Positions 1,458 to 41,775 of a stretch of DNA of 64,000 nucleotides are shown here, piece after piece. The DNA comes from Candidatus Hydrogenedentota bacterium (GTDB lineage: Bacteria > Hydrogenedentota > Hydrogenedentia > Hydrogenedentales > SLHB01), in the NCBI GenBank assembly GCA_045863295.1, contig BTWA01000007.1, positions 77,889-141,888 on the forward strand, in the 5' to 3' direction. A program made the position numbers and the translations under genes. The notes below the pieces were generated by a model. The model did not search any database, was not told where the DNA came from, and saw only the letters and a list, made by a program, of their open reading frames with translations. How positions within the stretch are numbered: the first letter of the stretch is position 1; each line of letters starts with the position of its first letter.

Positions 1458-1575
1458 TGTCGGGTTCCTCGCGAATAAAGAGTTTGATTGCATGGTAGCG
1501 TTTCACGTGAGATTTTGCTAGCCTGCCCGGAGGGATCGTATCCAGTGTTTCGTTAGTGGTGTGGAGTATGGGGCA

Positions 1576-4584: not shown

Positions 4585-4631
4585 ATCCAAGACAATTTCA
4601 TTGGCGAATTATCCTGCTCGACAGGTATACA

Positions 4632-7124: not shown

Positions 7125-7167
7125 TTGGGCTTGGCGATACTTCACTGTTTCGAAGGGGGATAAGGGT

Positions 7168-11149: not shown

Positions 11150-11515
11150 CTACCGGCCAAGCACGTCGGCCCGGGTCGTTTCGACAATGGCAAGCACTTC
11201 GTCGATGTCTTTTCTGGGCACGTTGAGTTCGGTCAGCGCTTTGGAAAGATTCTCAGCCACGGCGTTGAAATGAGTGTCGTTCAGCCCCTTTGCAACCAGC
11301 GCGGCATGCGCACCACGCATGTCTTTGCCGGAATACGCGTGCGGCCCGCCAAAAGCAAGCGTCATGAAAGCCTTTTGCTTGGCCGCCTGCCGCTCCATGT
11401 CTATCCCGTCGAACCAGAAATTAATCCGATCATCGGAAAGGACATGCCGGTAAAATACGTCAACCGCGGCGTCTACTGCCGCTTCTCCGCCCAATCGTTC
11501 ATACAAGGTGCTCAT
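11150..11515 (-). CDS. Truncated haemoglobin (group I, trHbN-like globin)
   Basis: MSTLYERLGGEAAVDAAVDVFYRHVLSDDRINFWF... fits the 2-on-2 globin N-terminal pattern. The track ORF 11150..11632 has a 39-aa low-complexity leader, so the internal ATG at 11515 is preferred. Confidence 0.75.
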   Translation of the reverse strand: MSTLYERLGGEAAVDAAVDVFYRHVLSDDRINFWFDGIDMERQAAKQKAFMTLAFGGPHAYSGKDMRGAHAALVAKGLNDTHFNAVAENLSKALTELNVPRKDIDEVLAIVETTRADVLGR

Positions 11516-11655: not shown

Positions 11656-12090
11656 ATGCATTTGACGCTTTATACGGATTACAGCCTCCGGCTCTTGCTA
11701 TTTCTCGCCATTCAACCCGAAGGGGCCACCATCACCGAAGTCGCCGAACGTTACGGAATCTCCAGAAACCATCTGGTCCGCATTGTTCACGATCTCGGAA
11801 AGAAGGGATGGATCGCCACTGAGCGGGGGAGAGGGGGGGGCATCAAGTTAGCCAAAGACCCCGGCGAAATCAATCTCGGATCGGTGGTACGCGATATGGA
11901 ACCGTTTCAAATAGTCGAATGTTTCAATGCCATATCAAACACCTGTGTAATCGCACCGTCGTGTCTAATGAAAAAAGTGCTCGCCGACGCGGCCGAAGCC
12001 TTTCTGGCCGAACTTGAAAAGTACACGCTTGCCGATCTGATCAAGAACAAAAAGATGTTGTCAAAACACCTGATCGAGCTGGCATCATGA
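11656..12090 (+). CDS. Rrf2-family transcriptional regulator (NsrR/IscR-like, three conserved Cys for an Fe-S cluster)
   Basis: The N-terminal winged-HTH region MHLTLYTDYSLRLLLFLA is typical of Rrf2. The C-x8-C-x5-C cluster ECFNAISNTCVIAPSC is consistent with an Fe-S ligand set. An SD-like aaggaag sits 6 nt upstream of ATG 11656; the track start 11635 is a GTG. Confidence 0.8.
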   Translation: MHLTLYTDYSLRLLLFLAIQPEGATITEVAERYGISRNHLVRIVHDLGKKGWIATERGRGGGIKLAKDPGEINLGSVVRDMEPFQIVECFNAISNTCVIAPSCLMKKVLADAAEAFLAELEKYTLADLIKNKKMLSKHLIELAS

Positions 12091-12104: not shown

Positions 12105-13052
12105 TTACTCTTTGCCCATCGTGTTCCTCAGGGTGCCGATTCCGTCTACGCTGGCTTCGATCACGTCCCCGTTTTTCAAATAACGGCCGGTAGCCATTGC
12201 CACGCCGGAAGGCGTCCCCGTGGATATGATATCGCCGGCATGCAGTGTTACCGATTGCGTGATGAACGCGATTACCGCGGCCACCGGAAACACCATTTGC
12301 GCGGTAAGGGCGTTCTGCCGGATCTCGCCATTCACCGTAAGCTTCAACCCCAGCGTCTGCGGATCCGGAATGGCCTTGGCGGAAGTCACGCACGGTCCGA
12401 TCGGGCAGAAGCCGTCATGCCACTTGCCGTGCAGCCAGTCGAAAAACGGGTCGCGCTCCCGCTTCTTGCGATTCGGGAACGGACGATATACGCGATCAGA
12501 TATGTCATTGACCACCGTATACCCCGCCACAAAGTCCAGCGCATTGCCTTCATTCGCATGCTTGCAAGTCTTGCCGATCACCACTGCCAACTCGCATTCA
12601 TAGTCAATATGATCCGGTGAGACGCGGGGAATGAGCACCGGCGCATTCGGATGATTGACCGTTGTAACCGGTTTCATGAACACGTAGGGAAACGTTTCTT
12701 CCCGCTCCACTTCAGCCTCGCCGCCTTCTTTGATGTGTTCGACATAATTGCCCGCGAGCAACAGTATCTTTCCCGGCGAAGGAATGGGACTCTGCAGCGT
12801 AATGCCGTCCACCGGCACGGACAGCGCCTGCTTTTCAGCGGGATTCGCGTCCAGCCATGCTGAGACGGCATGGGCAACGTCTGCCTTTGCGCCGCCCGGA
12901 AGCAATTCCATAATCTCCGTTGCACTCAGGTCGGCATCCCGACCGGCCTTTGCCTTGTATGCACCAGAGGCATCGGACAGCGGCACAACGGTGTCGTCGT
13001 AGTAATAGCCGAACGACGGCTGGCTGTTCTTCAAAAAGCGGCAAATACGCAT
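12105..13052 (-). CDS. Fumarylacetoacetate hydrolase (FAH) family protein
   Basis: The FAH-fold signature region KILLLAGNYVEHIKEGG...DYECELAVVIGK...GDIISTGTPSGV runs the full length of the 315-aa product. Confidence 0.85.
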   Translation of the reverse strand: MRICRFLKNSQPSFGYYYDDTVVPLSDASGAYKAKAGRDADLSATEIMELLPGGAKADVAHAVSAWLDANPAEKQALSVPVDGITLQSPIPSPGKILLLAGNYVEHIKEGGEAEVEREETFPYVFMKPVTTVNHPNAPVLIPRVSPDHIDYECELAVVIGKTCKHANEGNALDFVAGYTVVNDISDRVYRPFPNRKKRERDPFFDWLHGKWHDGFCPIGPCVTSAKAIPDPQTLGLKLTVNGEIRQNALTAQMVFPVAAVIAFITQSVTLHAGDIISTGTPSGVAMATGRYLKNGDVIEASVDGIGTLRNTMGKE

Positions 13053-13062
13053 CGTACTCTCC

Positions 13063-15792
13063 TCACTCTTGACGGTATTCCATGAAGTCTTGCCCGGACT
13101 CGCCCTTCAATTCAAACGTACCAACCTGCATGCACGAACCATGACACAACGCCGCCTGAACTACGGTTCCCGCGGCATCACGGCGCACCCATGCAAGATT
13201 CGCATCGGTTTGCGTGCCGTCGGCATTCACCATCCGGGAATCCCGTTCCAATTCTGGATCGACAATTAACATCAGATCGGTTTCCCCGGACACCATGCGT
13301 ATCTTCAGCGCCACGCTCGAATCGCCCATGGCGTTGCCATTGCTGTCCGTGATTTCTATCCTTTCCACCGATTCGACGACGCCCGCAGTGGCATAAGGCT
13401 CCATGACGGCCGCGAACGTGGATTGAAGCACCTCCTCGCTGTCAGCCTGGCGACGTACAAACACGCGGGGTATCCAATGCTCGTTGTCGGATTCGTATCC
13501 CCCGGCAACCACCCAGGCTTCCGCGGTTCCGGCACTTGCATCGGTCGTAAAATCCCAATACCGCATGCCAATTGCACGGGGAAACGGCAGCAGATTGTAT
13601 ACGTCTTCTACGGTCCAGTTCGCGGACCAGCCGGGTTGCGCATTCGCAGCCATGCGGAAATTCCGCATCTGAGTGTTATTGCCATACTCCCCGGCCTCGG
13701 CCAATTCCAGGCCCGAAGTGGACAGTTGACCGTAATGACTGTGAATAAATTTCGTGTGATCCTTGCCGCCTCCCACGCGAAACACGTCGACAACATAAAA
13801 ATGCTCCGGGCCGGCGTCAACCATCACCGCCGTGCGTTCATACCGGTTGCCGTTATTCGTCTCGGGCGCAGCGGCGCGTATGGCCCGAAAACCCACGCCA
13901 TCCGCCCAAAGGGTAGTCGTGCCAGAACCCTTGGGTTGGTTCGCGCCGTCCACGACCACGGTATTGTGCGAGGCCGTCATCTGATACCACCGGGAACGAG
14001 GCGATTCCCAACCGCCAAACTGCACCGGCGGATACCCAAACTCGGGAAGCAAGTCCAAGCCAAACGCAAAAAGGCCAAGGTTCATGGAATCAAAATGACC
14101 GTGGCCGCCGCCGCTGTCGTAATCGAGCCAAAGCGCGCGCGCATTCAAACCGGCTCCCGATCGCAGAATGCCCAGATGCCAAGCCTCCTTGTTCACGCTG
14201 GGATTGACAATAAGTGTGCCTTCGGACCGAATGACGCTTGCCACCTGCGACTGAAACGTCTGAGGATCCGATCCGTATATGTCGTAGGGAAGTCCATCCA
14301 ACTTGTACCCGTTTTCTTTGTATAACACCTGCACGTAGCGGGGATCGCCCGTGGTTTCATACAGACTCCAGAGAAACCGGTTAATCGAAGGCGCCAGTAT
14401 TGTCCAGCCCCCGACATTCGAAACGTTGCCCCCCGGCTTGATGAAATTTACGCCCACGTATTCGTCCACAGGCGCCGCAAAATGGCCCGCATCGCCGCTC
14501 AGCGGATAATACCGCTGGAGACACAACGTATCGATGTGAAATAGATACGTTTGCTTAAGACTTGGCGTGCGCTCAAGTATCCGCTTGGTAAACGTGGGGT
14601 CTGCCTTGTCGAACTCCGCAAGAAAGTGGGCCAACGCCGAAATCGTAAATGACGCATAGCCCGCCAACCCTTTTTCACCGGTCACGCCGTCTACCGCCGT
14701 CGCTTTCGCCAACATGGGATCCACAATCGCCCAGAACGCCTCGTCCGGTTCCTGCAACACCGCCGTCATCACCGCCTTCAAAACTTCTGTGCGGGGATAG
14801 TTGGAATAGATTTTGCCCGGATTGGCCAGCGCATCCCGCAGAATCCGCTCCTCAATGTTACGCTGGACATCCGCAAATGTCGCTTTTGGATTCGCCAGGC
14901 CATACGTCGTCGCCTGCTGGGCAAGAAATGCAGGCAATGCCGTATCCTCCCTCAGCGCTTCGAAAATCATGTCGTAGCTCATCGCCAGTTCGCGCGTTTC
15001 TTCGCAGGTGTCATGCCAGGTCGAAACATATCCCGCGGACGCAGGCCCCTCATACATCACGCCCTGCGCTTTGAAATCGAAGTCGGGATACAAATCCGCC
15101 ACCCGATCCAACATCACGCCCGCCTTGTGCGCATACTCAGGCTCGCCGGTTACCACATACGCCGCGCTAAGCGCTCGAATACCGCCCAAGACCAACTGCT
15201 TCCATTGCCCGTAGATCAGGTACGCGCCAATAAACCGCCAACGTTCGCCTTTCTCGTTCACATACCCGTTTCCATCATCCACGCCATACAGATGAAGCGG
15301 ATCGTTCGGATCGGGATGCTCCGCGTTAAATAACAACGCACGATCGGCCAGTTGCGGATCGAACACTCCGCGCTCATTTAATCCCGAGTCGTAAAATGCC
15401 TTGAAATCATTCTTGGGAAACAATTCGCCGCTGTGCGGACACTCGACTTTCCATGGATGCTCTTGCGCTTTCATAATCCAGTTGTACATCGGCACGGGCT
15501 GGCCCGTCGCCGGCGAGTACCCGTTCGACCACACCATCCAGGACCGGTTGATGGCCGGACCAAACATGAGGTTCCACAATTCATTGTCCGTCTTGGCACG
15601 CCAAAACTCGGCCATTTCCACAATGCCGGTCTTAACCGAAGCCGCCCAAGGATCGTTCGCGATATTCTCGCGCACACGGGCCACCACCTCCGCTGGATAC
15701 AACACGCTGGCAGACTTGGTTTGCCCATGAGCCAAACCCCATACCGTGGATAGACAGGCCAGGAATGCGAGAACGCGCAGGTGCCGAGTCAT
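13063..15792 (-). CDS. Heparinase II/III-like polysaccharide lyase family protein (secreted), second copy
   Basis: Signal peptide MTRHLRVLAFLACLSTVWGLAHG. The C-terminal GGGHGHFDSMNLGLFAFG...SHNTVVVDG matches the heparinase II/III-like motif also seen in 1576..4584. Confidence 0.7.
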   Translation of the reverse strand: MTRHLRVLAFLACLSTVWGLAHGQTKSASVLYPAEVVARVRENIANDPWAASVKTGIVEMAEFWRAKTDNELWNLMFGPAINRSWMVWSNGYSPATGQPVPMYNWIMKAQEHPWKVECPHSGELFPKNDFKAFYDSGLNERGVFDPQLADRALLFNAEHPDPNDPLHLYGVDDGNGYVNEKGERWRFIGAYLIYGQWKQLVLGGIRALSAAYVVTGEPEYAHKAGVMLDRVADLYPDFDFKAQGVMYEGPASAGYVSTWHDTCEETRELAMSYDMIFEALREDTALPAFLAQQATTYGLANPKATFADVQRNIEERILRDALANPGKIYSNYPRTEVLKAVMTAVLQEPDEAFWAIVDPMLAKATAVDGVTGEKGLAGYASFTISALAHFLAEFDKADPTFTKRILERTPSLKQTYLFHIDTLCLQRYYPLSGDAGHFAAPVDEYVGVNFIKPGGNVSNVGGWTILAPSINRFLWSLYETTGDPRYVQVLYKENGYKLDGLPYDIYGSDPQTFQSQVASVIRSEGTLIVNPSVNKEAWHLGILRSGAGLNARALWLDYDSGGGHGHFDSMNLGLFAFGLDLLPEFGYPPVQFGGWESPRSRWYQMTASHNTVVVDGANQPKGSGTTTLWADGVGFRAIRAAAPETNNGNRYERTAVMVDAGPEHFYVVDVFRVGGGKDHTKFIHSHYGQLSTSGLELAEAGEYGNNTQMRNFRMAANAQPGWSANWTVEDVYNLLPFPRAIGMRYWDFTTDASAGTAEAWVVAGGYESDNEHWIPRVFVRRQADSEEVLQSTFAAVMEPYATAGVVESVERIEITDSNGNAMGDSSVALKIRMVSGETDLMLIVDPELERDSRMVNADGTQTDANLAWVRRDAAGTVVQAALCHGSCMQVGTFELKGESGQDFMEYRQE

Positions 15793-15938
15793 GGTAAGTA
15801 CCCCTCTTGAATAACCGCCGCAGGCGATAATATCCGCGAAGTGGAAGCCTTGTCCAAAAAGATGCGCCGCGTGAAATTACAAAAACCCAGCCCGGATCGT
15901 GTACAACGGTAGTCGACTTGGGAAGGGATGCGCGACAC

Positions 15939-17645
15939 ATGACCAGCGGATTGGCGGCGGCGGATTACACCATACTCGCCGGATTCTTCATTGTGCTCCT
16001 TGCGATCGGCCTGTTCTACTCCGGACGTATGAGCACCCTGCGCGATTTTTTCAGCGGCGGACGCCACGTGCCTTGGTGGCTCGCCGGCATATCCCTGTAC
16101 ATGACCACCTTCAGCGCGTTTACATTCGTTTCCTATTCCGCACTGGCATACAAGCACGGCTTCGTGGCGGTGGCCATTTGGTGGTTTTCCATTCCGGGCT
16201 GCCTGTTGAGCGCCTGGTTCCTGGCTTCCCGATGGAGGCGCGCCGCCAGTACAAGTCCCGTCGAGTACCTGGAAACGCGGTACGGGCATGTACTCCGTCA
16301 GTCGTTCAGTTGGTTTGGCATTCCATTGATCGTGCTCGACGACGCATTGAAGTTGTATGTCATCGGCACCATGATGCGTGTGAGCATGGGGTTCGAAAGT
16401 GACAGCGCCATCAATTGGATTATTCTCTTCTGTGGAATAATCATGGTGCTTTACACGCTTCTGGGCGGCCTATGGGCCGTGCTCATCACCGACTTTATTC
16501 AGTTTGTCGTGATGGGGGTCGCCGTGCTCGTTTTATTGCCGCTGACATGGCGCAGGGCAGGAGGCATGGGCGCAATCGCCGATCACCTTCCCACAGGCTT
16601 TGGAGACATCACCGTTGAAACCTACACCTGGCCATGGCTGCTCTCCTTCGCGGTCGTCCTAGCGCTTACCTTCGCCACGAAGTGGCCCTATGTGCAGCGT
16701 TACTACGCCGCGCGCACCGATCAGGAAGCGCGCTGGGTCGGCTACCTCGTCGCCGCGCTCACCCTGCTCGGACCTCCGTTGTTGTTCTTTCCGGCATTCG
16801 GCGCACGCGTCTACCTGCCCGAAGTCGCGGACGCAAATCAGGTCTATGCCCTGCTCTGCAAGGAACTGCTGCCGGCGGGACTCATGGGTATGATGATCGC
16901 CGCCATGTTCTCCGCCACCATGTCCATGCTCTCCAGCGATTACAATTCCGTGGCTTCCGTGGTCACGAACGATATCGTCAAGCGGCTCTTTATGAAACAT
17001 GCATCAGAAAAGAGTCTTGTCCTCGTGGCCCGTCTTTCCACACTGGCCATCGGCCTTCTTGCCATGGGGCTCGCGCTGCTAATCGCTCAGGCAAAAACCA
17101 TGGACGACCTCGTCAAAATCATGGCACAGTTGTTTGCGGCATTGCTTCCTCCCGTGGCCCTTCCCATGGCCGCCGGTCTCTTGTGGCGCCGCGCCACCAA
17201 CGGCGGCGCGCTGATGGGGTTCGCGCTGGGTGCGACCTGCGGCATCGCCGCATCCATTGCAAGCTACACCACCGGCATGAGCTACCTCCGCGAAGTGCAG
17301 TATCTGACATGGCTCACCTTGCTGCCCACGGCCGCAGGCCTAGGACTCGGCAGTCTGCTCTTTGCGGATTCCGCCGATAAAAGCGAACAAGTGCGCAATT
17401 TCATGGACGGCCTGCAAGGCGCCACGGCGCACGTGCCCGAGCCCGCGAGCAAAACGGACGCGGCCGTGGCCATGCGCATTATCGGATTGACCACCCTGTT
17501 GTTGGGGTCATTGCTTTTCGTAAGTGTGTTGCTGACCGCGGGACTGAGTGGACGCGTCTCTCTTCTGGTGGGTCTGCTTATGGCTGCCGGCGGCATGGCA
17601 ACGTATTTGAAATCGCGCGCGATACTCGCCTGCGCTCAAGAGTGA
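15939..17645 (+). CDS. Sodium:solute symporter (SSF) family transporter
   Basis: Polytopic membrane protein with an SSF-like N-terminal pattern (YTILAGFFIVLLAIGLFYSGRMSTLRDFFSGGRHVPWWLAGISL). ATG 15939 is preferred over the TTG at 15918, with a purine-rich ggaaggg 12 nt upstream. Confidence 0.85.
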   Translation: MTSGLAAADYTILAGFFIVLLAIGLFYSGRMSTLRDFFSGGRHVPWWLAGISLYMTTFSAFTFVSYSALAYKHGFVAVAIWWFSIPGCLLSAWFLASRWRRAASTSPVEYLETRYGHVLRQSFSWFGIPLIVLDDALKLYVIGTMMRVSMGFESDSAINWIILFCGIIMVLYTLLGGLWAVLITDFIQFVVMGVAVLVLLPLTWRRAGGMGAIADHLPTGFGDITVETYTWPWLLSFAVVLALTFATKWPYVQRYYAARTDQEARWVGYLVAALTLLGPPLLFFPAFGARVYLPEVADANQVYALLCKELLPAGLMGMMIAAMFSATMSMLSSDYNSVASVVTNDIVKRLFMKHASEKSLVLVARLSTLAIGLLAMGLALLIAQAKTMDDLVKIMAQLFAALLPPVALPMAAGLLWRRATNGGALMGFALGATCGIAASIASYTTGMSYLREVQYLTWLTLLPTAAGLGLGSLLFADSADKSEQVRNFMDGLQGATAHVPEPASKTDAAVAMRIIGLTTLLLGSLLFVSVLLTAGLSGRVSLLVGLLMAAGGMATYLKSRAILACAQE

Positions 17646-17648
17646 ACC

Positions 17649-18965
17649 ATGGAATACGCCAAGAGCAAGTCCCTATATGATAGAGCCTGCACCGTCATCC
17701 CCGGCGGCATTAACAGCAACGTGCGCGCGGTCTCGGAACCGATACCGCTTTTCTATACGCACGGAAAAGACGCGCGCATCTGGGATGCCGACGGCAACGA
17801 ATACATCGACTATGTTCTCGGTCAGGGACCCATGCTCCTCGGCCATTCTCCCGCAAGAGTTATCGAAGCCATCAAGCAGCAGGCGGAGAAAGGCTTGGTA
17901 TACGCGGGACAATCCGAATCGGAAGTGCGCGCGGCTGAACTCATCCGTGAACTCGTGCCCTGCGCCGAAATGGTCCGGTTCAACACCACCGGTTCAGAAG
18001 CGGTGCATGCCGCCATTCGACTGGCCCGCGCCGCCACCGGACGCAAGAAAGTCCTCCGGTTCGAAGGCCACTACCACGGTTGGCTTGACACGATTGCATG
18101 GAATCCTCCCAAGCCCGGCGTTGCTCTGGGCCCACGCGAAAATCCTATCCTGCGCCCGTCTTCCAAGGGACAAACCGAAGAAGACGCCGCCAACCTCTTC
18201 GTACGCCCCTGGAACGACACCGCGCTCGCTGAAGATCTATTTCGCAACCACGGCTCGGAAATCGCCGCCGTCATCTGCGATCCCTTCGCGTGCGCGTCGG
18301 GACTGATCCCCGCGCAACAAGAGTTCCTGCGCACATTGCGCCGTCTTTGCAATGCCCATAATGCCGTCCTGATATTCGATGAAGTGATCACCGGTTTCCG
18401 CGTCGCGCTCGGAGGAGCGCAACAATACTACGGCGTCACGCCCGACCTCGCCACGTTTGCGAAGGCCCTGGGTGGCGGCGTTGCCGTCGCCGCCGTAGCT
18501 GGCAAAGCAGACCTCATGCGCCTGTTTGGCGAATTGGCCACCGTGCACGCCGGCACCTACAACGCAAATCCCCTGGCCATGGCCGCCACCGTGGCTGCCT
18601 TGGAGTTCCTGAAGGAAGAGGGCGGCGCCAATCTGCAACGGGCACACACGCACGGGCAACAGCTATGGGATGGCCTCTCAAACATCGCCGGCGAACTTAA
18701 ATTCCCCCTCCAACTGCGTGGAGTCCCCAGTGTGTTCAGCACCAGCGTTGTACCCGAAAGCGCGACACCGGTCGTCGACTTCCGAACCGCGCTACAGGCC
18801 GATGCGGAAACCGCAAATGCATTCTGGCGCGACATGCACCATCGCGGCGTGCAATTCACCGCGTTCGGTATCTGGTTTCTCTCTACGGCCCATACAAAAG
18901 CGGATATCGACCAGACCCTCGCGGCGGCCCGCGAGTCCCTCCGCGGTCTCGCCGCCCTGAGGTAA
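17649..18965 (+). CDS. Class-III PLP-dependent aminotransferase (glutamate-1-semialdehyde aminomutase-like)
   Basis: IPGGINSNVR...GHSPARVIEAIKQQAEKGLVYAG...FDEVITGFRVALGGAQQYYGVTPDLATFAKALGGG, with the lysine of the AKALGGG motif (TFAKALGGG) as the putative PLP Schiff-base residue. It starts 3 nt after the transporter stop. Confidence 0.85.
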   Translation: MEYAKSKSLYDRACTVIPGGINSNVRAVSEPIPLFYTHGKDARIWDADGNEYIDYVLGQGPMLLGHSPARVIEAIKQQAEKGLVYAGQSESEVRAAELIRELVPCAEMVRFNTTGSEAVHAAIRLARAATGRKKVLRFEGHYHGWLDTIAWNPPKPGVALGPRENPILRPSSKGQTEEDAANLFVRPWNDTALAEDLFRNHGSEIAAVICDPFACASGLIPAQQEFLRTLRRLCNAHNAVLIFDEVITGFRVALGGAQQYYGVTPDLATFAKALGGGVAVAAVAGKADLMRLFGELATVHAGTYNANPLAMAATVAALEFLKEEGGANLQRAHTHGQQLWDGLSNIAGELKFPLQLRGVPSVFSTSVVPESATPVVDFRTALQADAETANAFWRDMHHRGVQFTAFGIWFLSTAHTKADIDQTLAAARESLRGLAALR

Positions 18966-18973
18966 ATGCTGTT

Positions 18974-20464
18974 ATGCGTATTGCCATCGCCGGTTTCATG
19001 CACGAGTCCAACACCTTCACAGGCGAGAAGACCGAACTCCGCCATTTTCAGGAAGCCTACTACCATCGCGGCGAAGAACTTGTCCCGGTCTGGCAGGACG
19101 CGCATCACGAACTGGGCGGGTTTATTGCCGGTTGCCGCGAAGCGAACGTCGAACTTGTCCCGCTCCTGGCCGCATGGGCCACCCCCAAGGGCCCCGTCAC
19201 CGACGCGGCTTACGAACACATTGCCGCCGAACTGCTCAAATGCCTTCGCGCCGCGGGACCTATCGACGGCCTGCTGCTCGCGTTGCATGGGGCCATGGTC
19301 ACCGAATCGCACTCGAGCGCCGACAGCGAAACGGTGCGCCGCGTCCGCTCCGCAATAGGCTCAACCGTCCCGCTCATTCTCTCGCTCGATATGCACGCCA
19401 ATGTCACGGAAGACATGATTCGACTCCCAGACGCCACCGTCGCTTACCGCACCTATCCACATGTCGACCAACGCGAACGAGGACGCGAATGCGCCCGGCT
19501 TGCCATCGGCGCCGCGCAGGGAAAAATCAAACCGGTGCAGGCGGGATGCAAACTGCCCCTGCTGATTCACATCGTCCAGCAATTCACCGGCTCCGGCCCC
19601 ATGGCCAGCGTGTACAGTGCCGTTGAACGAACCGCGACCCAATCCGGCATCCTCTCGGTCTCGTGTTCGCCCGGATACATTTACGCCGATGTCCCGCACA
19701 TGGGCGTCTGCGTGAACGTCGTCGCAGACCGCGACACCTCGATCGCGAAGGCCGCTGCATCCGCACTCGCCAAGGAGATATTCGCATTAAGAGACGAATT
19801 GAACGCGGGATTGCCCGACACCGCCTCCGCCGTCGCACAAGCCAAAGCGCTCGAGGGTACCGTCTGCCTGATGGACTCCGGCGACAACATCGGCGGCGGC
19901 GGGCCCGGCGATTCCACCATTCTGTTTCACGAACTGTGCAAACAGGGCGTGCCCCGAGTTTGCGTCGTACTCTACGATCCCGAAGCCGCACGCACCTGCG
20001 CGGAAGCGGGGGAAGGCGTGCGCGTCGCCCTTAGGGTCGGAGCGAAAACCGACGCCCAACACGGTGCTCCCGCATCCATCACAGGGAAGGTGCTTCATAT
20101 CTCCGACGGCGTCTTCGTCGAGGAGGAAGCCCGCCACGGCGGCATGCGCGAATACAACCAGGGACTGACCGCGGTCGTGCACACCGACGACGGACACACG
20201 GTCGTCCTCAACAGTCTGCGTGTCATGCCCACCAGTCTGCGGCAACTGCTCAGCCTCGGCATTGATCCCGCAAAACACAAAGCCATCATCGTCAAAGGCG
20301 TTACCGCGCCCCGCGCCGCCTACGACCCTATCGCCGCGGCCATAATCCCCGTCGATACCCCCGGCGTCACCCAGGCCGGCCCCGAGGCATTCGAATACAA
20401 GAATCGCCCACAGCCGCTCTACCCGCTCGATCCGATCGAAAGCTGGAAACTAACATGCTGGTAA
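18974..20464 (+). CDS. M81-family metallopeptidase (MlrC/microcystinase C-like; DUF1485+DUF1446)
   Basis: The N-terminus MRIAIAGFMHESNTF is the hallmark of the MlrC N-terminal domain. The 496-aa length fits, and it starts 8 nt after the aminotransferase stop. Confidence 0.75.
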   Translation: MRIAIAGFMHESNTFTGEKTELRHFQEAYYHRGEELVPVWQDAHHELGGFIAGCREANVELVPLLAAWATPKGPVTDAAYEHIAAELLKCLRAAGPIDGLLLALHGAMVTESHSSADSETVRRVRSAIGSTVPLILSLDMHANVTEDMIRLPDATVAYRTYPHVDQRERGRECARLAIGAAQGKIKPVQAGCKLPLLIHIVQQFTGSGPMASVYSAVERTATQSGILSVSCSPGYIYADVPHMGVCVNVVADRDTSIAKAAASALAKEIFALRDELNAGLPDTASAVAQAKALEGTVCLMDSGDNIGGGGPGDSTILFHELCKQGVPRVCVVLYDPEAARTCAEAGEGVRVALRVGAKTDAQHGAPASITGKVLHISDGVFVEEEARHGGMREYNQGLTAVVHTDDGHTVVLNSLRVMPTSLRQLLSLGIDPAKHKAIIVKGVTAPRAAYDPIAAAIIPVDTPGVTQAGPEAFEYKNRPQPLYPLDPIESWKLTCW

Positions 20465-20726
20465 CATCGAAACCGGACAAAATGGAGAATTACTCACGCA
20501 ACGCCGCAAAGAACTTGAAAGTTCCGGATCTAAGTAGGCAAGAAGGAATCGCTGCTGAAATCAGGTACGTTTAAGCCCGAGCAACAACGGAAAATCCACG
20601 AAGTTCCAACTGAAAATCACTTTGCGTCTTCGCGACTTTGCGTGAAATCAAAATCGTGTCCTGGAAGTTTAGTTCTCATTGTGCGCGCAAAAGGGACTAT
20701 ACTTACTACCTATGGGCGTTCCAACG

Positions 20727-21851
20727 ATGACGTTTCTGCGCCGAAATTCGACTCAATTTCTTTGCGGCCTCTGCGTTTTCGCCCTCGTGCCCGATTCAAT
20801 TCCTGCGCAGGAATGGCCCACGCTGCCCGATGCAAACGCCGCCATCGTGGTGCCCGCCCAGGAATGGGCCTTCGAACCCGCCCCTCGCACGGTCAACGCC
20901 TACCTCCATTACCCCAACGGTTCGATCGCCAACGTCGACGCCAACACCGGCCTTATGCTCAGCCTGCACAACTGGGGCGGCACCCACGCCACCGGCGCGC
21001 CAGACCCCGATACGCTCGCCGATCGCTATAATGTCATTGCCATCTGCGTCGACTACCTGCAGAGCGGCAAATGGAATCCCGAAACAAATCACCCCTACGA
21101 CTTCGGTTACCTGCAGGCCCTCGACGCGCTCCGATCCCTCTATGCCGTCTGGTCCCAACTCGACGCGCGCGAGATCGCGTTCGACAAGGCTCGCATCTAC
21201 GCCGCGGGCGGCTCCGGCGGCGGCAACGTCGCCCTCATGGCCAACAAACTCGCCCCCCGCACCTTCGCCGCCATCGTAAACCTTAGCGGCATGGTGCGCC
21301 TCACCGACGACATCGCCTTCGGACTCGAAGGCGGAAGCGATCTCAACGCCGGATACAGCAACGATCCGAAAAGCCCACGCTTTTTATCGAAGGACGATCA
21401 GGAATTGCGCTTCATCGGAAATCCCGATCATCTCGTGAAACAGGTGTCCCTGGGAAACAAACCCAAAGTGATCGTGGTCCACGGCGCAAACGACGATACA
21501 TGCCCCACCGCGGACACGCGCCAAATGGTGGATACCATGATCGCCGCCGGAATGGACGTCGACGCCCACATCGTCGAAGAGAGTGATATAGACGGCGAAA
21601 TCTTCACCGACACAAAACACTCCCTCGGCGACCGGACAAAAATCGTCCTGCATCTGGCCGGCAAATACCTGCAGCCCGATTCCCCCGAAGCCGCCCGCCG
21701 CTCCATCCCCGCCGACTTCGATCGCAAAGACCGCGCCGTCCGCTACCCAACCCCCCGCGGCGTTTTCATCATCTCCTACGAAAACGGCTACCCCCAAGGC
21801 CGCTTCGAACGGAATGATCGCGATCCCTCCGATCAAGTCGTATTTCCCTGA
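20727..21851 (+). CDS. Secreted alpha/beta-hydrolase (esterase/peptidase-like, GGSGG nucleophile elbow)
   Basis: Internal ATG 20727 gives signal peptide MTFLRRNSTQFLCGLCVFALVPDSIPAQE. It has an AAGGSGGGNVALMA serine motif and downstream VIVVHGANDDTCP and His-containing segments, consistent with a Ser/Asp/His triad. Confidence 0.55.
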   Translation: MTFLRRNSTQFLCGLCVFALVPDSIPAQEWPTLPDANAAIVVPAQEWAFEPAPRTVNAYLHYPNGSIANVDANTGLMLSLHNWGGTHATGAPDPDTLADRYNVIAICVDYLQSGKWNPETNHPYDFGYLQALDALRSLYAVWSQLDAREIAFDKARIYAAGGSGGGNVALMANKLAPRTFAAIVNLSGMVRLTDDIAFGLEGGSDLNAGYSNDPKSPRFLSKDDQELRFIGNPDHLVKQVSLGNKPKVIVVHGANDDTCPTADTRQMVDTMIAAGMDVDAHIVEESDIDGEIFTDTKHSLGDRTKIVLHLAGKYLQPDSPEAARRSIPADFDRKDRAVRYPTPRGVFIISYENGYPQGRFERNDRDPSDQVVFP

Positions 21852-22145: not shown

Positions 22146-22529
22146 ATGCTAACGCTGCTGTCCCTGTACTCCAATACTCAAGTTGTCGGCATAAGGGCAT
22201 TAATAATGCGTATTGCTGAGCAAAGCCAAGTGAGTCGAGTATGCATTCATTCAGCATTATTATGCTTTATCGCCGCAAATTGCGCTGCTGAGTCCAAACA
22301 CCCGGACGGGTACGTTTTCTACGCCGAAACCTTCGATTTCGGACATGTCGCCGCCGAAACTACCGCAGTGCACATGGAGCCTGCGACTCGCGCCAAGCTC
22401 ATCATTCAAGTTCCCTGGGATCCCAATCACGCTTCGCGTGTGTACAAATCTACGATTGAGGTAACGGCGCTCATCGATGGAAAGACGGAGCGAACCCAAT
22501 TGGAAGCATACGGACTGTACAACGATTAA
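22146..22529 (+). CDS. Hypothetical small secreted protein (low-GC region)
   Basis: 127-aa ORF with an internal hydrophobic N-region (VCIHSALLCFIAANCAAES). No recognisable domain. Local GC is about 40-47% against about 60% elsewhere. Confidence 0.45.
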   Translation: MLTLLSLYSNTQVVGIRALIMRIAEQSQVSRVCIHSALLCFIAANCAAESKHPDGYVFYAETFDFGHVAAETTAVHMEPATRAKLIIQVPWDPNHASRVYKSTIEVTALIDGKTERTQLEAYGLYND

Positions 22530-22603: not shown

Positions 22604-23620
22604 GTGATGATTCGGACAATCGCTTGGCCAATGATAGCAACCTTGACCGTACTGGCAGCCTCAGGGCAGGAACTCATTACCGGCCCGGCATCGGATCCGC
22701 CCGAAGAATTGCTGGTGCTCGCCCGGGAGTCTAAGGCGATCTACGACAGTATTACGTCATTTAGGGCACACGTCACTAAAGTAACTCGCACTGGGGGAGC
22801 GTCGGCACAAAGCCCAACGCAACCGGTAAACGAAAGAATCGATCGGGTCGAGGCGGAAATGGGCTTCAAGGATGGCTGGTACAGACTCATCCGCAACTGG
22901 ACCACCGAGACCAAGAACCCGGATACGACATCATTTCAAAAGATCACGGTTCTGCTGACGGATTCGTTCTTCTTCCAGTCGTTGGAAGGAAACGAGCAGC
23001 ATCCCGTCAAGACGAGCAGGCAATACTTCGAATTGGCTTCAAAAGATGCACTCGCGCCGAATCAGGATATGTACATCAAGCAGATGTGGAAGCCCGACCC
23101 TAGAATTTTTGGTTACACGATAGGCGACGGAACATTACTTATTGATTACATTGAAAAGATGTCGGATTATCCGGGAGCGGTGTGGTCCCTTCGAAAGTCG
23201 GAAGGAGTCTATTACGCTACAATCCACTTTGATGGTGATGTCCAGAACGGCAGACATCGATCATCCTTCGAAATAGACGCCGAGCGAGACTTCTTTATTC
23301 AGAAAGCAGAGTCGACCAATCGCGAAGGCGTAGTTGGAAGTAGTAGAACCATAGAGCCCCAACAGGTCGATGGTCTCTGGTTTGTCAGCCTTGTTCAAAG
23401 CAAGCTTGTTGATTTGGAGTCAGAAGTAACCTATACGAATGTCGAAATAAACCCAGAGTTTGACGTGGACTATTTCACTCTCAGAAGCTTTGCATTCAAG
23501 GAATCGGATACGATGAACTCGTATTCCCAGGATCGAAGCAGAAAGACGGAAATGGTCTATTGGGGTGGCAAATGGATATCAATCGACCAGTTACGGGAGA
23601 ACAGTATTCCAAAGAAGTGA
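22604..23620 (+). CDS. Hypothetical secreted protein (low-GC region)
   Basis: 338 aa with signal peptide MMIRTIAWPMIATLTVLAASGQE. No recognisable domain. The composition and codon usage are consistent with a real CDS. Confidence 0.55.
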   Translation: MMIRTIAWPMIATLTVLAASGQELITGPASDPPEELLVLARESKAIYDSITSFRAHVTKVTRTGGASAQSPTQPVNERIDRVEAEMGFKDGWYRLIRNWTTETKNPDTTSFQKITVLLTDSFFFQSLEGNEQHPVKTSRQYFELASKDALAPNQDMYIKQMWKPDPRIFGYTIGDGTLLIDYIEKMSDYPGAVWSLRKSEGVYYATIHFDGDVQNGRHRSSFEIDAERDFFIQKAESTNREGVVGSSRTIEPQQVDGLWFVSLVQSKLVDLESEVTYTNVEINPEFDVDYFTLRSFAFKESDTMNSYSQDRSRKTEMVYWGGKWISIDQLRENSIPKK

Positions 23621-23672: not shown

Positions 23673-23697
23673 TGGCCCCACTATGTGGGGTACCGCG

Positions 23698-26631
23698 ATG
23701 AAACGTCGATTTGCGCTCGTCTTGCTGTTGCTCAGCGTCACATTCGGTGCGGCTGTATTCTTCTTCGCCAATGGCCGGTCGAATGACAGCAATCGGCCAA
23801 TCCGCCCCGAAAAAGTGGAAGAGGCCAATTATTCCTTTGTCGAAACCGGCCCGGCACCCGAGCCGGAGCACATCGCGCGCGCGGCGATCCGCGCGGAGGG
23901 CGACGCGATACTCAGAGGCCGCGTTCTCGCGTTGGACGGCCAACCCGTTCCGAACGCCGCCATCCGGATCGTGGCGAAGACAACCACATGGAATCACGAA
24001 GGCGGCAGGGTCGGTGAAGAGACACGTCTGCAATCCGATCCCACAGGAGCGTTTGATGCATCACCGCTTCCATTCGGCCACTACCTCGTAATAGCAAGTC
24101 ACGAAGAAGGCTACGCATCCGAGGCGGTCCGCCTGACACGGCGCATCTCGCAAGAGGATGTGCTACTTGTGCTCCATCCGGGAGAGACCATCGCCGGACT
24201 TGTGCGTTCGACAGATGGAACCGCCATCGGCGGCGCGGAGGTGTTCCCCGTGGCATTCAATGGAACGCTTGTCCCGCGCGCCAAAATGGCTGCGTCCATG
24301 GTAACCACGGATTCTGACGGCCGCTTTGCGATGGGCGGATTGGCCGCGGGCCGTTGGATTCTGGTGGCAAAAGCCAAAGACTACGCGCCTGCGGAATCCG
24401 CGGAACAGGTGACCGGATCGGATTCCTGCGAGATCATTCTGGACGCGGGCGCACCGGTTCGCGGAACGGCCATCGACACCGTCACGAACCTGCCCATACC
24501 CAATCTCGTGGTTTCAGCCCTGCCAATCGGTACTCACATACCCAAGGAAACCATCAGCACGGACGATAACGGTCAATTCATGTTCGACCATCTGCCTCAG
24601 GTGAGCTGCGAAATCGGCGTGGACGATGAAAGCTATCTCCTTCTTGAAGGATTGCCGTTGGTGATGCCCGCCGAACCGGCACCGGACATCACGCTACGGC
24701 TCACCAAGGGCGGCGAAGTACGCGGACGCGTGTATGAGGTGGCGTCCGGAGAAGGCGTGAGCGAGGTTCGAATCAGCGCGGAGATCCGGTCGGCGATCGG
24801 CACTTTCCAATTCCAGACTCAGCAGCGCAAGCCGGGCGAACCGGAGATCCCGCTCCGCACTCCATCGACCCTCCCGGACGGCACGTTTTCCATTACTGGC
24901 CTCGCGCCGGGCATGTACCACATTAGCGCGAGTTCGTTTGTGCCCGGCTTCGGGTCAACCCGGCAACGCGATATGGAAACAGACGTGCAACTCAATCCCG
25001 GCGATGTAATTGAAGGGATAGAATTTGCTATAGACCGGGGCATCGTGATGAGCGGACTTGTAGTGGACGTGGATGGGAAGCCGGTGCCCGGATCACGGGT
25101 CAATTGCTGGTATCTCGAAAAAGTGTCCAGGCGGAGCCAGGTTGCCAATGCCGATAACGCCGGCCGGTTCGTGTTTACAGAGATGCGTCCCGATCACGAA
25201 GTAACGGTGTGGGCCGAAGCCGGATCGACAGAAAGCGAAAAAATCGGCCCGCTGATGATCCCGGCCGGTGGACTCCATGAAGTGAAGATCGTAATGACGG
25301 CTACAAAAGATGCAAAGATCAGCGGTACCGTCGTCAATCAGCAAGGCAAACCAGTCGAAGTAACGGTAACAGGCCTCGAACAGACTGAACTGCCAAACCC
25401 AAAGCGGTTCACCACTCAATCCGCATCGGATGGCCGTTTCCTGGTCCCTAACGTGTCTGCGGGAGTGTACGACGTCTCGCTGAACGCGGGCAGGAACGAA
25501 AAACGTCCCGCAGGCGAGGTCACCGTCAATCCAGGCCAGTTTGTACGGGACGTCAGGCTCGTTTTTGAAGAGCAGCCTCTCTATACCATCGAAGGGCATG
25601 TCTCGGACGAAAGCGGCAATCCCCTTGAAGCCTATGTTTCCTATAACCGGGTTGTAGAGAGTACGGCAACGAATCTGGGCGGCGTTCGTTCAGGATCGGA
25701 CGGCTCTTTTCGGATTGAGGGCTTGGAGCAAGGCGCCTATTCCATACACGCGGACTGCGCCGGGTTTGCGTCAGAAGCCACCATGGTAAACGCGGGTGAT
25801 TCAGGAATTCAGATTGTGTTGCGACCGCTAACCGGCACGCTCGCGGGCCGTGTTGTGGATGTGCAAGGCCACGCGGTTCCCGCATTCCGGATTGCTCTCT
25901 TTCGCGATAGTGATTATCGCGGGGTATCCAGCGCGCCCAAAAACATCGTCGATCAGGCTGGGTCATTCGAAATGCAAGTGCGTGAAGGCACATACCGCAT
26001 AGAAGTGCAGGCAGACGGTTATCTTGCAGAGGAAAAAGACGCGGTCGAGGTGGCAACGGGGCAACGCTCGACCGCCACCTTCACCTTGCGGCCGGGAGAT
26101 GCGGAAGTGCGCGGAACGATCGTGGATGCGGCGGGTCAACCCGTGGTATCGGCAAAGATCTTCACGCAGAGACAGCAGGAAAACGGCGAACTGGGCACGA
26201 GTTCCGCCGCGGCCCGATCCGATGCGGAAGGCAGATTCACCCTCCACGCCGTTCCAGACAAACCGCTTGCGATCTCGGCCACGCATCCCAGCGCCGGATC
26301 CGGTTCCGCGATGGTGACGCCAAGATCGAACGCTCCGCAGTCGGTGACCATCGCGTTAGCCGCATTGGGAAAAGTGACAGGGGCTATTCGTGTCCAGGGA
26401 AACCCGCTCACCGGCGGCACAGTCCTGTTGTGCCGGGGCGGCATTGCGTTGTCCTCGGAGTACACCAAGGCCGGTGGCTTATACGAATTCGATCAGGTGG
26501 AAGCAGGCAGATACGACATTGTGGCCTACCCAGGCTTCATAAGCCAAAGTTATCAAGACGCCCCCGCGCCACTCTCTAGAACAGCCGAAATCGTGGACGG
26601 CGCTGTTACCGTAGTCGATTTTGATTTCTAG
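23698..26631 (+). CDS. Large membrane-anchored/secreted protein composed of about 10-12 tandem carboxypeptidase-regulatory-like (CarboxypepD_reg, transthyretin-like beta-sandwich) domains
   Basis: Start MKRRFALVLLLLSVTFGAAVFFFA (signal anchor). A unit of about 80-90 aa recurs, opening with [LIV]xGxVxDxxGxPVxxAx[IV] (LRGRVLALDGQPVPNAAIRIV; IAGLVRSTDGTAIGGAEVF; VRGRVYEVASGEGVSEVRI; MSGLVVDVDGKPVPGSRVN; ISGTVVNQQGKPVEVTVTG; IEGHVSDESGNPLEAYVSY; LAGRVVDVQGHAVPAFRIALF; VRGTIVDAAGQPVVSAKIF; VTGAIRVQGNPLTGGTVLL). Confidence 0.7.
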   Translation: MKRRFALVLLLLSVTFGAAVFFFANGRSNDSNRPIRPEKVEEANYSFVETGPAPEPEHIARAAIRAEGDAILRGRVLALDGQPVPNAAIRIVAKTTTWNHEGGRVGEETRLQSDPTGAFDASPLPFGHYLVIASHEEGYASEAVRLTRRISQEDVLLVLHPGETIAGLVRSTDGTAIGGAEVFPVAFNGTLVPRAKMAASMVTTDSDGRFAMGGLAAGRWILVAKAKDYAPAESAEQVTGSDSCEIILDAGAPVRGTAIDTVTNLPIPNLVVSALPIGTHIPKETISTDDNGQFMFDHLPQVSCEIGVDDESYLLLEGLPLVMPAEPAPDITLRLTKGGEVRGRVYEVASGEGVSEVRISAEIRSAIGTFQFQTQQRKPGEPEIPLRTPSTLPDGTFSITGLAPGMYHISASSFVPGFGSTRQRDMETDVQLNPGDVIEGIEFAIDRGIVMSGLVVDVDGKPVPGSRVNCWYLEKVSRRSQVANADNAGRFVFTEMRPDHEVTVWAEAGSTESEKIGPLMIPAGGLHEVKIVMTATKDAKISGTVVNQQGKPVEVTVTGLEQTELPNPKRFTTQSASDGRFLVPNVSAGVYDVSLNAGRNEKRPAGEVTVNPGQFVRDVRLVFEEQPLYTIEGHVSDESGNPLEAYVSYNRVVESTATNLGGVRSGSDGSFRIEGLEQGAYSIHADCAGFASEATMVNAGDSGIQIVLRPLTGTLAGRVVDVQGHAVPAFRIALFRDSDYRGVSSAPKNIVDQAGSFEMQVREGTYRIEVQADGYLAEEKDAVEVATGQRSTATFTLRPGDAEVRGTIVDAAGQPVVSAKIFTQRQQENGELGTSSAAARSDAEGRFTLHAVPDKPLAISATHPSAGSGSAMVTPRSNAPQSVTIALAALGKVTGAIRVQGNPLTGGTVLLCRGGIALSSEYTKAGGLYEFDQVEAGRYDIVAYPGFISQSYQDAPAPLSRTAEIVDGAVTVVDFDF

Positions 26632-30506: not shown

Positions 30507-30564
30507 GCCGTCCAGGGGCTCCGGACCGGTGCAAACGGGGCAATGTCTATCCATGAAACCAACC

Positions 30565-33500: not shown

Positions 33501-33723
33501 GCACGACCGCGCCCTTGCTCTTGGCCTCCTCGGCGACGTCCAGCCGGAGTCCGGCCTTGCGCTGGTTGGCGTCCCGGCCGTGGCAATGAAAACAGTTGTC
33601 CGCCAGGATCGGCCGGATATCGCGATTGAAGTCCAGCGGTTTCGTTTGGCCGTATGCGGCTGTGGCAAAGCCGGCAAATGCAGCCCAGAAGGAATAGAAC
33701 AAAACAGCCCGATACATAAACAC
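30565..33723 (-). CDS. Planctomycete-type cytochrome c domain protein (PSCyt1/PSCyt2/PSD1; DUF1549/DUF1553) with concanavalin/LamG-like insert
   Basis: Signal peptide, then a heme-binding CxxCH (DNCFHCHG) near the N-terminus. DUF1549-like ([21 protein letters not shown]) and DUF1553-like (C-terminal) regions are present in 1052 aa. The gene sits immediately upstream of the DUF1501 gene, the canonical pairing. Confidence 0.85.
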
Positions 33724-37556: not shown

Positions 37557-37630
37557 CGCGAATCCTCCCGTTATCACGCTTGGACCATCCGTGAAGTCCA
37601 TCGCGCCTTATCCATTGACTCTATACCGCA

Positions 37631-41750: not shown

Positions 41751-41775
41751 CGTATAGACGTCAGGATGAGTGTGC

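Follow-up and report, generated by a model that had tools for sequence, protein, structure and literature searches.

The only enzyme of the M81 family with a known substrate is MlrC, which cuts solely the Adda-Glu bond, after the N-terminal beta-amino acid Adda (PMC4810221), and public annotation has copied the label 'microcystin degradation' onto all M81 proteins. Among aminotransferases resembling glutamate-1-semialdehyde aminomutase (GSAM, HemL), Kat is a 3-aminobutyryl-CoA transaminase which lies in a catabolic cluster and was misannotated as hemL (PMC3149608), and GntE transaminates an aldehyde in guanitoxin biosynthesis. Here we describe a locus from a Candidatus Hydrogenedentota metagenome-assembled genome (MAG) in which an M81 gene directly follows the genes for a sodium:solute symporter family (SSF) transporter and a HemL-like aminotransferase. 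The whole stretch analysed, called the window below, comprises 64,000 nucleotides (GCA_045863295.1, contig BTWA01000007.1, positions 77,889 to 141,888, forward strand), and the three genes, termed here the triad, are as follows:

15939..17645, + strand: SSF (sodium:solute symporter family) transporter, predicted importer (568 aa; PF00474)
17649..18965, + strand: class-III (fold-type I) pyridoxal phosphate (PLP) aminotransferase, a GSAM/HemL-like 'Gly407/Trp409' paralogue (438 aa; PF00202)
18974..20464, + strand: M81-family (MlrC-like) zinc amidohydrolase (496 aa; PF07364 + PF07171)

In the reading that we prefer, to which we assign a joint probability of about 0.5, the three genes would form one operon for the sodium-driven import of an amide-linked amino compound, its hydrolysis by the M81 enzyme and transamination by the Gly407-type aminotransferase; in this lineage the compound would be glycan-derived and the product drained by an FAH-family hydrolase, two components in which our confidence is lower than in the reading as a whole. 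It builds on the gene order and spacing, the family memberships, the intact catalytic residues, the non-HemL character of the aminotransferase and the conservation of both pair and triad, all of which are established directly.

Anatomy of the triad and its three proteins

The transporter and aminotransferase genes are separated by 3 nt (GAG TGA acc ATG) and the aminotransferase and M81 genes by 8 nt (GAGG TAA atgctgtt ATG), the Shine-Dalgarno-like GAGG that precedes the M81 gene lying inside the end of the aminotransferase gene. The list of open reading frames (ORFs) and the junction sequences thus agree with the original prediction, which had described three tightly spaced genes with these gaps, and the Pfam, NCBIfam and PDB matches bear out the families it had named, including the 'GSA-aminomutase-like' character of the class-III aminotransferase. 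The ORF list offers TTG 15918 or ATG 15939 as the start of the transporter; the latter is the likely one because homologues align from residue 1 of its product. On a public contig that encodes the identical protein, gene calling done independently finds these three genes as well, and the identical M81 protein is recorded from a Candidatus Hydrogenedentota MAG. The three ORFs are real genes, with Pfam matches far beyond chance. In a scan for terminator-like sites none above the shuffle background was found inside the triad (15939-20464), and none was found 3' of the M81 gene, where the signals of the host may differ from those scanned. Co-transcription of the triad would follow from the spacing of the genes.

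The M81 protein possesses the DUF1485 N-terminal and MlrC_C C-terminal domains that define the family, and covers both profiles in full (PF07364, E=1.5e-96, 323.6 bits; PF07171, E=6e-50, 170.3 bits). In a PDB search its full length aligns with MlrC (7ylq, E=2e-46) and with the uncharacterised 3iuu (E=2e-44). The zinc of MlrC is surrounded by E56, H150, D184, H186 and H208 (PMC12474180), and the MlrC mutants D167A, H169A and H191A, in another numbering, are inactive (PMC4810221); the Asp/His/His zinc ligands correspond to D167/H169/H191 in MlrC and D138/H140/H162 in 3iuu. Alignment places E11, H105, D139, H141 and H163 of the window protein at the five MlrC positions E56, H150, D184, H186 and H208, and these residues are invariant in 14 homologues with 49-68% identity. 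With all five catalytic and zinc-binding residues kept, the window M81 should be catalytically competent, and as its N-terminus carries no signal peptide it is assigned to the cytoplasm.

The substrate-binding residues have been kept only in part. The MlrC contacts W59, F67, F96, S392, Q468, S485 and R492 were derived from docking and mutagenesis (PMC9982164), and the first three correspond to H31, V39 and W68 in the window protein, of which only the F96/W68 position is similar in character, while S392, Q468, S485 and R492 are H363, A445, T462 and F473 in the 7ylq alignment. On the other hand, N41 of MlrC has its counterpart in N13, and D42 aligns with E70, the residue that makes a hydrogen bond to the free amine of the substrate (PMC9982164). 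The kept amine-side and changed tail residues together suggest an amidase that would sense a free amine beside the scissile amide but act on a leaving group unlike that of MlrC. The microcystinase model NF041767 gives the window protein 174.7 bits against a cut-off of 999.

The aminotransferase belongs to class III both by its match to PF00202 (Aminotran_3, E=1.6e-64, 218.6 bits) and by its invariant K272, which aligns with the PLP lysine of GSAM (FAKALGGG). It narrowly passes the NF000818 subfamily cut-off (408.7 against 398 bits) and misses the hemL equivalog TIGR00713 by about 140 bits (386 against 527.3), a score that the GntE model nearly reaches (367 bits). Its best PDB matches are GSAM/HemL structures at about 280 bits (284 at the top); GSAM and PctV score 264-284 bits against 167-177 bits for the beta-transaminases 2yku and 4ao9, which figure in its match list together with the aminotransferase 4zm3. 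In alignments to five GSAM structures the Schiff-base lysine is kept, as are the Ser and Arg of GGINSNVRA, N-terminal residues that bind the substrate carboxylate in GSAM structures. In all five, the glutamate of the HemL motif QFEAGF (QFEAGF/SQFEG), which we take to be Glu406 in Synechococcus numbering, is replaced by Gly407; moreover, HemL YHGH reads YHGW and the loop after YHG, in the gating-loop region, differs. Among 20 M81-linked homologues of the aminotransferase, G407, W409 and W145 do not vary.

A control anchored on the aminotransferase points in the same direction. From a metagenome sample we took 35 aminotransferases with the HemL glutamate (Glu-type) and 30 with glycine (Gly-type) and checked their neighbours for M81, which was found beside 9 of the 30 Gly-type but 0 of the 35 Glu-type proteins (Fisher p=4.5e-4). 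The sampled Glu-type genes recurrently adjoin HemA, HemB, HemC and HemD, and no Gly-type gene does. Judged by Gly407, the missed hemL cut-off and this control, the window aminotransferase is a HemL paralogue with a predicted different function. A profile of the M81-linked aminotransferases run against the PDB found no characterised structure closer than GSAM or 4zm3, and a signal peptide is absent from the window protein. Action on a non-alpha amino group is plausible because Kat, GntE, 2yku and 4ao9 provide precedents among HemL-like proteins.

The transporter matches positions 1-406 of the 406 in PF00474 (E=6e-40, 137.8 bits), which places it in the SSF, and a crude hydropathy scan is compatible with a membrane protein of 13 to 15 helices. 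It falls below every NCBIfam equivalog cut-off, among them those of PutP (89.7 against 515.5 bits), PanF (70.7 against 328) and YidK-like proteins. Its nearest solved structures are SiaT (5nv9, 119 bits) and SGLT1 (110 bits), so that by sequence it would lie nearest to SiaT, SGLT and YidK-like transporters rather than to amino-acid carriers. T58/S60/T63 of SiaT in transmembrane helix 1 (TM1) are kept as T57/S59/T62, but at the position of Arg135 the alignment has a gap flanked by D134 and D135, and the protein is thus not of the SiaT type. We take Arg135 to be the carboxylate ligand in SiaT (5nv9), and presume the roles of Thr58, Ser60 and Thr63 in the same way. The TM3 motif LIVLDDALK, with D134-D135 at window positions 16338-16343, is common to the orthologues in four related loci (L006, L007, L075, L084), and unrelated Terriglobia SSF proteins adjoining M81 keep an arginine at the Arg135 position. 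By analogy, the two aspartates would suit a positively charged group and are a possible candidate marker of a cationic substrate.

Recurrence of the aminotransferase-M81 pair

Related loci were collected with the M81 alignment as query and one genome per species, the best 80 of at least 570 relatives being kept. Adjacency was counted from tblastn searches with the window proteins; ORF clusters, in which the greedy caller sometimes chose antisense ORFs over the M81 and aminotransferase genes, were not used. Homologous triads, on whose occurrence elsewhere the original prediction had staked its case, are present in the order SSF, aminotransferase, M81 in L005, L006, L007 and L075 with 60-73% identity. 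The first three show a 4-nt overlap at the aminotransferase/M81 junction and L075 one at the SSF/aminotransferase junction. The pair is found in the same order without the SSF gene in L002 (Nitrospirales) and L003, and in a neighbour-joining M81 tree the aminotransferase lies directly upstream in 7/7 loci of the window's subclade that have enough upstream sequence.

The pair also extends beyond this subclade and across phyla, in varied arrangements. In Acidobacteria, aminotransferase and M81 genes are adjacent in L024, L033, L042 and L049 and one to a few genes apart in L013, L016, L027, L029, L041 and L051; in Chloroflexota (L067, L069, L078) the order is reversed, with M81 first; a further metagenomic clade (L102, L103, L108, L120, L121) has the pair as well, and in L085 the two genes are divergent. 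Overall, a GSAM-like aminotransferase lies within the examined flanks in 22 of the 80 species-representative M81 loci, and at least 4 further Terriglobia loci with an Amidohydro_2-aminotransferase fusion directly upstream of M81 bring the total to about 26/80. This linkage is far above chance because GSAM-like genes, by our estimate, number only a few per genome. Seven Terriglobia/Versatilivorator loci (L028, L038, L045, L046, L048, L056, L061) have the fused gene as the immediate upstream neighbour of M81; it encodes a protein of 780-880 aa at about 5600-7970 in each, and these loci are a different, richer version of the aminotransferase-M81 module. Also present in them are a triple-RidA gene (L-PSP x3), a DHDPS-family gene, additional Amidohydro_2 genes and an SSF gene in convergent orientation.

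That orders, spacers and fusion partners vary suggests that linkage of the two enzymes was selected for repeatedly. The conserved core is the aminotransferase plus M81; the SSF gene of the triad is confined to the Hydrogenedentota-like clade, with MFS, ABC or different SSF transporters elsewhere, and the original proposal is qualified to that extent. Among 120 immediate non-aminotransferase neighbours, no family approaches the aminotransferase in frequency, the commonest being SDR (6), SSF (6), MFS (5) and PALP, WbsX-like, BNR and GntR (3 each), and Opp/Dpp-type peptide transporters are absent from the top 25 families of these neighbours. In the literature searched on M81/DUF1485/MlrC-like proteins with aminotransferases and gene clusters, no description of the pairing was found.

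Genomic surroundings of the triad

Four further elements of the window flank the triad:

12105..13052, - strand: FAH-family hydrolase, cytoplasmic, a probably associated C-C hydrolase or decarboxylase (315 aa; PF01557 E=3e-64)
13063..15792, - strand: exported heparinase II/III-like protein, polysaccharide-lyase-like, probably associated (909 aa; PF07940 E=6.6e-9)
15793..15938, no strand: divergent intergenic region, presumed promoter/regulatory (146 nt, between the heparinase-like gene and the transporter gene)
20712..21851, + strand: exported alpha/beta hydrolase (DUF2920 / S9-like / esterase-like), of doubtful membership (247 nt 3' of M81)

The N-terminus of the heparinase-like protein resembles a signal peptide, and the protein shows weak similarity to the PL17 alginate lyases 4nei/4ojz (E=4e-7) and to heparinase III 5jmd; L006 has an orthologue with 60% identity in the same divergent position. 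The FAH-family protein, which has no signal peptide, is nearest in structure to HpcE (1gtt), 8gsr and the acylpyruvase FAHD1, and scores 178 bits, below the cut-off of 500, with the 2,4-didehydro-3-deoxy-L-rhamnonate hydrolase model. Its orthologues lie in the same position in L006 (51% identity) and immediately downstream of a Gly-type aminotransferase in L084 (39%). A sigma-70-like scan of the divergent region gave a single match, TGGACA-18-TATTAT (10/12), on the - strand and facing the heparinase-like gene; no + strand consensus promoter was found 5' of the transporter, where the consensus scanned for may not be that of the host. The alpha/beta hydrolase has Pfam and NCBIfam matches and an N-terminus that resembles a signal peptide, and we leave it out of the conserved unit because none of the related loci examined has a homologue.

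The combination of FAH, Hepar_II_III, the SSF with the two aspartates (DD-type) and the Gly-type aminotransferase is seen in the window, in L006 and in L084. The last, a metagenome contig, has a single co-directional array that starts with an IclR regulator, a TonB-type outer-membrane protein, a neutral-ceramidase-like amidase and a GFO/IDH/MocA oxidoreductase and continues with the Gly-type aminotransferase (44% identity), FAH (39%), a heparinase II/III-domain protein, a GH-like protein and the DD-type SSF (46.5%). WbsX-like genes follow M81 in L005, L006 and L058. By these assignments the Hydrogenedentota-type module would sit among glycan-processing genes, and the predicted compartments fit extracellular depolymerisation, import and cytoplasmic processing. 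A GH123-like glycoside hydrolase is also encoded in the window (35808-37601), at a distance of 15 kb from the operon; those GH123 enzymes that have been characterised are beta-N-acetylgalactosaminidases with glycosphingolipids as substrates. Neutral-ceramidase-like genes stand beside aminotransferase and M81 genes in L084, L089, L019 and L020, and together with the GH123-like gene they are hints of amino-sugar or sphingolipid-type substrates.

Elsewhere the neighbours include GFO/IDH/MocA, SDR, DHDPS, Kelch/NanM-like, BNR and MR_MLE genes. L102 and L121 combine IclR, an ABC sugar/polyamine-type binding protein, two permeases, an aldehyde dehydrogenase and a creatininase-family amidase with the pair, and an aldehyde dehydrogenase is what would be expected if the aminotransferase makes an aldehyde. 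L067 reads M24, Amidohydro_1, M81, aminotransferase, M24, and L108 aminotransferase, MFS, M81, M19 dipeptidase. L027, L041 and L051 have DHDPS, an AstE-like gene (nearest DoeB), Kelch, the aminotransferase, a metallo-beta-lactamase-fold protein, PALP, SDR, M81 and SSF. The constant theme across clades is amide hydrolysis plus removal of an amino group, with a carbon skeleton that probably differs between clades. Two known pathways that such neighbours bring to mind were considered and set aside: a classical sialic-acid cluster, as L027, L041 and L051 combine DHDPS, Kelch/NanM-like, BNR, GntR-FCD and SSF genes with the pair, was not adopted since the NanA and NanM scores are far below the NCBIfam cut-offs and the window has none of these genes; and the ectoine (Doe) pathway has weak DoeB-like and EutB-like matches in other loci only and nothing in the window.

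Several other features were recorded. In the Nitrospirales MAG locus L002, whose pair is the most similar to that of the window (aminotransferase 74% identity), a URO-D family gene (5380-6486) lies just upstream of the pair; it may be either a non-haem URO-D-family pathway enzyme or a coincidence. A gene pair DUF1501 plus PSCyt1/PSCyt2/PSD1 (with Laminin_G_3) occupies 29094-33723 of the window, about 9 kb downstream of M81, and the same families occur at up to 8 kb from M81 in Acidobacteria (L024, L028, L038, L042, L046, L048, L050, L061, L064), a recurrence that may be due to chance, these families being very abundant in such genomes. Between 10156 and 12090 the - strand encodes a split flavohaemoglobin-like pair, with a Fer2/FAD/NAD reductase (about 10156-11136) and a bacterial globin (about 11150-11515), and divergent from it is an Rrf2-family regulator (about 11656-12090), a layout that resembles an NsrR-controlled nitric-oxide detoxification unit. 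The 982-aa protein encoded at 23683-26631 consists almost wholly of CarboxypepD_reg (transthyretin-like) repeats, of which there are 8 or more (264 bits altogether), and before its gene lie two small ORFs (22146-22529 and 22604-23620) that match no family. At E<=1e-5, Pfam gave no match to four large + strand ORFs (376, 1007, 830 and 819 aa) that follow one another at 324-9555. The genes at 39849-42912 encode a hybrid histidine kinase/response regulator and, after it, a response regulator that carries an HD-GYP-like HD_5 domain; they have no evident link to the operon.

Proposed pathway, its rivals and comparison with known systems

In the proposed pathway the SSF would import an amide-linked amino compound, or a fragment of one, by means of the sodium gradient, and the cytoplasmic M81 enzyme would hydrolyse an amide that adjoins a free amine, in the way that MlrC frees N-terminal Adda. 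The Gly407-type aminotransferase, acting as a true transaminase, would then pass an amino group in a non-alpha position (beta, omega or sugar-borne) from one hydrolysis product to a 2-oxo acid, and the ketone or aldehyde that remains would enter central metabolism. In this lineage the route would probably be fed by the exported heparinase II/III-like protein, breaking down a glycan or glycoconjugate outside the cell, and the FAH-family hydrolase would probably drain it by acting on a 1,3-dicarbonyl (acylpyruvate-like) product: transamination of a 4-amino-2-oxo (or 2-amino-4-oxo) acid would give a 2,4-dioxo acid, and hence the type of substrate used by FAH-type acylpyruvases. The order of the steps, the catabolic direction, the glycan origin and the role of FAH are what we infer from this gene content. 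Import, hydrolysis and transamination of an unusual amino compound, as first suggested, is still the most economical reading; the 'small peptide' option offered with it is less favoured, the surroundings in this clade being of carbohydrate rather than peptide type.

A number of observations weigh against this pathway. Of the M81 loci at 42-57% identity, about two thirds have no aminotransferase nearby, which shows that the two enzymes need not be coupled. The heparinase-like assignment is weak (36 bits in Pfam, E about 1e-7 against the PDB), the Hepar_II_III_C protein of L084 is not orthologous to that of the window, which makes this a recurrence at family level, and FAH is linked to the triad by adjacency. 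Outside the Hydrogenedentota clade the neighbourhoods are heterogeneous and some are peptide- or amide-like (M24/Amidohydro_1 in L067, M19 in L108, creatininase-family in L102). The MlrC contacts stem from docking and mutagenesis and not from a complex structure, the aspartate motif of the transporter is read by comparison with a single structure, MlrC as the sole characterised M81 enzyme is a peptidase, and we know of no characterised member in either the M81 subclade of the window or the Gly-type aminotransferase clade.

One rival is a peptide route modelled on MlrC, in which the M81 enzyme would release an N-terminal beta- or omega-amino acid from an imported small peptide or pseudopeptide, the aminotransferase would transaminate it and the glycan-type neighbours would be unrelated. 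The specificity of MlrC for a bond after a beta-amino acid (PMC4810221), the kept catalytic set and amine-binding acidic residue, the existence of HemL-like enzymes with proven beta-transaminase activity and the M24, M19, Amidohydro_1 or creatininase-family genes of some loci all speak for such a route, but the transporter is nearer to sugar and sialate symporters than to PutP (119 against 90 bits), R492, Q468 and S392 of the MlrC peptide tail site have become F473, A445 and H363, and the aminotransferase is closer to GSAM/PctV than to beta-amino-acid transaminases. As, in addition, no peptide-type transporter or other peptidase adjoins the triad in Hydrogenedentota-like loci and FAH, Hepar_II_III and the SSF travel with the Gly-type aminotransferase in three loci, we consider the peptide route possible but rather unlikely. 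A role in biosynthesis or modification, where the aminotransferase would aminate a keto intermediate as PctV and GntE do, M81 would trim a protecting or leader amide and the SSF would import a precursor, strikes us as improbable: several of the nearest characterised non-HemL relatives are biosynthetic (PctV-like 4zm3, ForI, the mycosubtilin aminotransferase domain, GntE) and the L003 pair follows sugar-nucleotide genes (epimerase/dehydratase, SIS protein), but no synthetase, glycosyltransferase, NRPS/PKS or export genes adjoin the triad, and an importer, IclR/GntR regulators, aldehyde dehydrogenase, FAH, DHDPS and SDR are typical catabolic company.

It is very unlikely that the three genes are functionally unrelated and adjacent by accident, the aminotransferase being a housekeeping HemL. 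GSAM is its best match in the PDB and NCBIfam, the NF000818 cut-off is just passed and a URO-D-family gene precedes the pair in L002; housekeeping HemL identity is nonetheless rejected on the TIGR00713 score, Gly407 with YHGW, the neighbour control, in which no Glu-type gene adjoined M81, and the heme genes found beside Glu-type proteins only, while recurrence of the pair across phyla in different orders speaks against accident. Even less credence is due to a true mlrC in a microcystin or nodularin degradation locus, a notion that the public label 'microcystin degradation protein MlrC' of the homologues and the shared fold and catalytic residues would encourage: it is rejected on the NF041767 score, the absence from the neighbourhood of mlrA (CAAX-type), mlrB (beta-lactamase-type) and mlrD (PTR2) and the changed hydrophobic and peptide-binding residues (W59 to H31, F67 to V39, R492 to F473).

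Returning to the import-hydrolysis-transamination pathway, a wider and more speculative version, which we hold to be doubtful, would see M81 and the Gly407-type aminotransferase as a widespread two-enzyme module that reverses N-acyl amino-sugar biosynthesis, in which the order is to oxidise, transaminate and acylate. The module, in Hydrogenedentota, Acidobacteriota, Chloroflexota, Nitrospirales and others, would de-acylate or de-amidate a glycan-derived amino sugar (acid) and transaminate the freed non-alpha amine to a keto sugar, which would then be reduced (GFO/SDR) or cleaved as a 2,4-diketo acid (FAH). If true, this would give the M81 family its first non-peptide substrate class, and complex glycans a new nitrogen-releasing route in uncultured soil and water phyla. 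If the compound is a glycan-borne amine or an unusual beta/omega-amino amide, the pathway would add a nitrogen-scavenging route to barely cultured phyla that dominate soil and sediment.

The M81 family is abundant (6329 of 8000 candidates scored reach E<=1e-20), and its aminotransferase partner is routinely annotated as HemL. Glycine in place of the HemL glutamate, with tryptophan two residues on, is a sequence marker that separates the paralogue from true HemL. Defined subsets of the M81 and HemL-like families thus make up a conserved functional pair, whose recognition corrects two systematic misannotations and offers a tractable two-enzyme target for biochemistry.

Compared with known systems, the window M81 shares with MlrC (7ylq) and 3iuu the DUF1485 + MlrC_C architecture and the Glu/His/Asp/His/His set, and with MlrC a cytoplasmic location, action after an importer and an acidic residue at the position of the substrate's free amine. 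It differs in falling far below the microcystinase cut-off, in the replaced contacts to the Adda phenyl and peptide tail and in its partners, a transaminase and an SSF instead of PTR2, without mlrA, mlrB or mlrD. HemL (2gsa, 3bs8), the best match of the aminotransferase at about 280 bits, has the same fold, PLP lysine and N-terminal Ser/Arg, but the window protein has Gly for the QFEAGF glutamate, another gating-loop region, YHGW and a link to M81, and heme-operon context was not seen. Kat, GntE, PctV-like 4zm3, MesAT (2yku) and VpAT (4ao9) belong to the same GSAM-like class-III branch; their substrates are non-alpha amines or carbonyls, the partner being a 2-oxo acid or an amino acid, and Kat is in addition a 'misannotated hemL' of a catabolic cluster. 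They are not orthologues (167-367 bits, below the family cut-offs where these exist), and to our knowledge none is paired with an M81 enzyme. SiaT and SGLT are the best structural relatives of the transporter, which keeps the Thr/Ser/Thr of SiaT TM1 but has two aspartates flanking the site of the absent Arg135 and a C-terminal extension with extra predicted helices.

The ectoine enzymes DoeA, DoeB, DoeD and DoeC (hydrolase, deacetylase, transaminase and aldehyde dehydrogenase) offer a parallel in logic, as does the MlrC/Adda route, with import, one or two amide hydrolyses, class-III transamination and aldehyde oxidation, and some aminotransferase-M81 loci contain DoeB-like (AstE family), M24, EutB-like PALP and aldehyde dehydrogenase genes. 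The window differs in having M81 instead of M24/AstE, a GSAM-like instead of an EctB/DoeD-like transaminase and no Doe orthologue. All three protein families and the logic of an operon with importer, amidase and transaminase are thus already known, and the module is unsurprising in principle and useful for the correction of annotation; what is new is that the pair is a recurrent module, that its aminotransferase is of a recognisable non-HemL type and that the Hydrogenedentota module travels with glycan-type genes.

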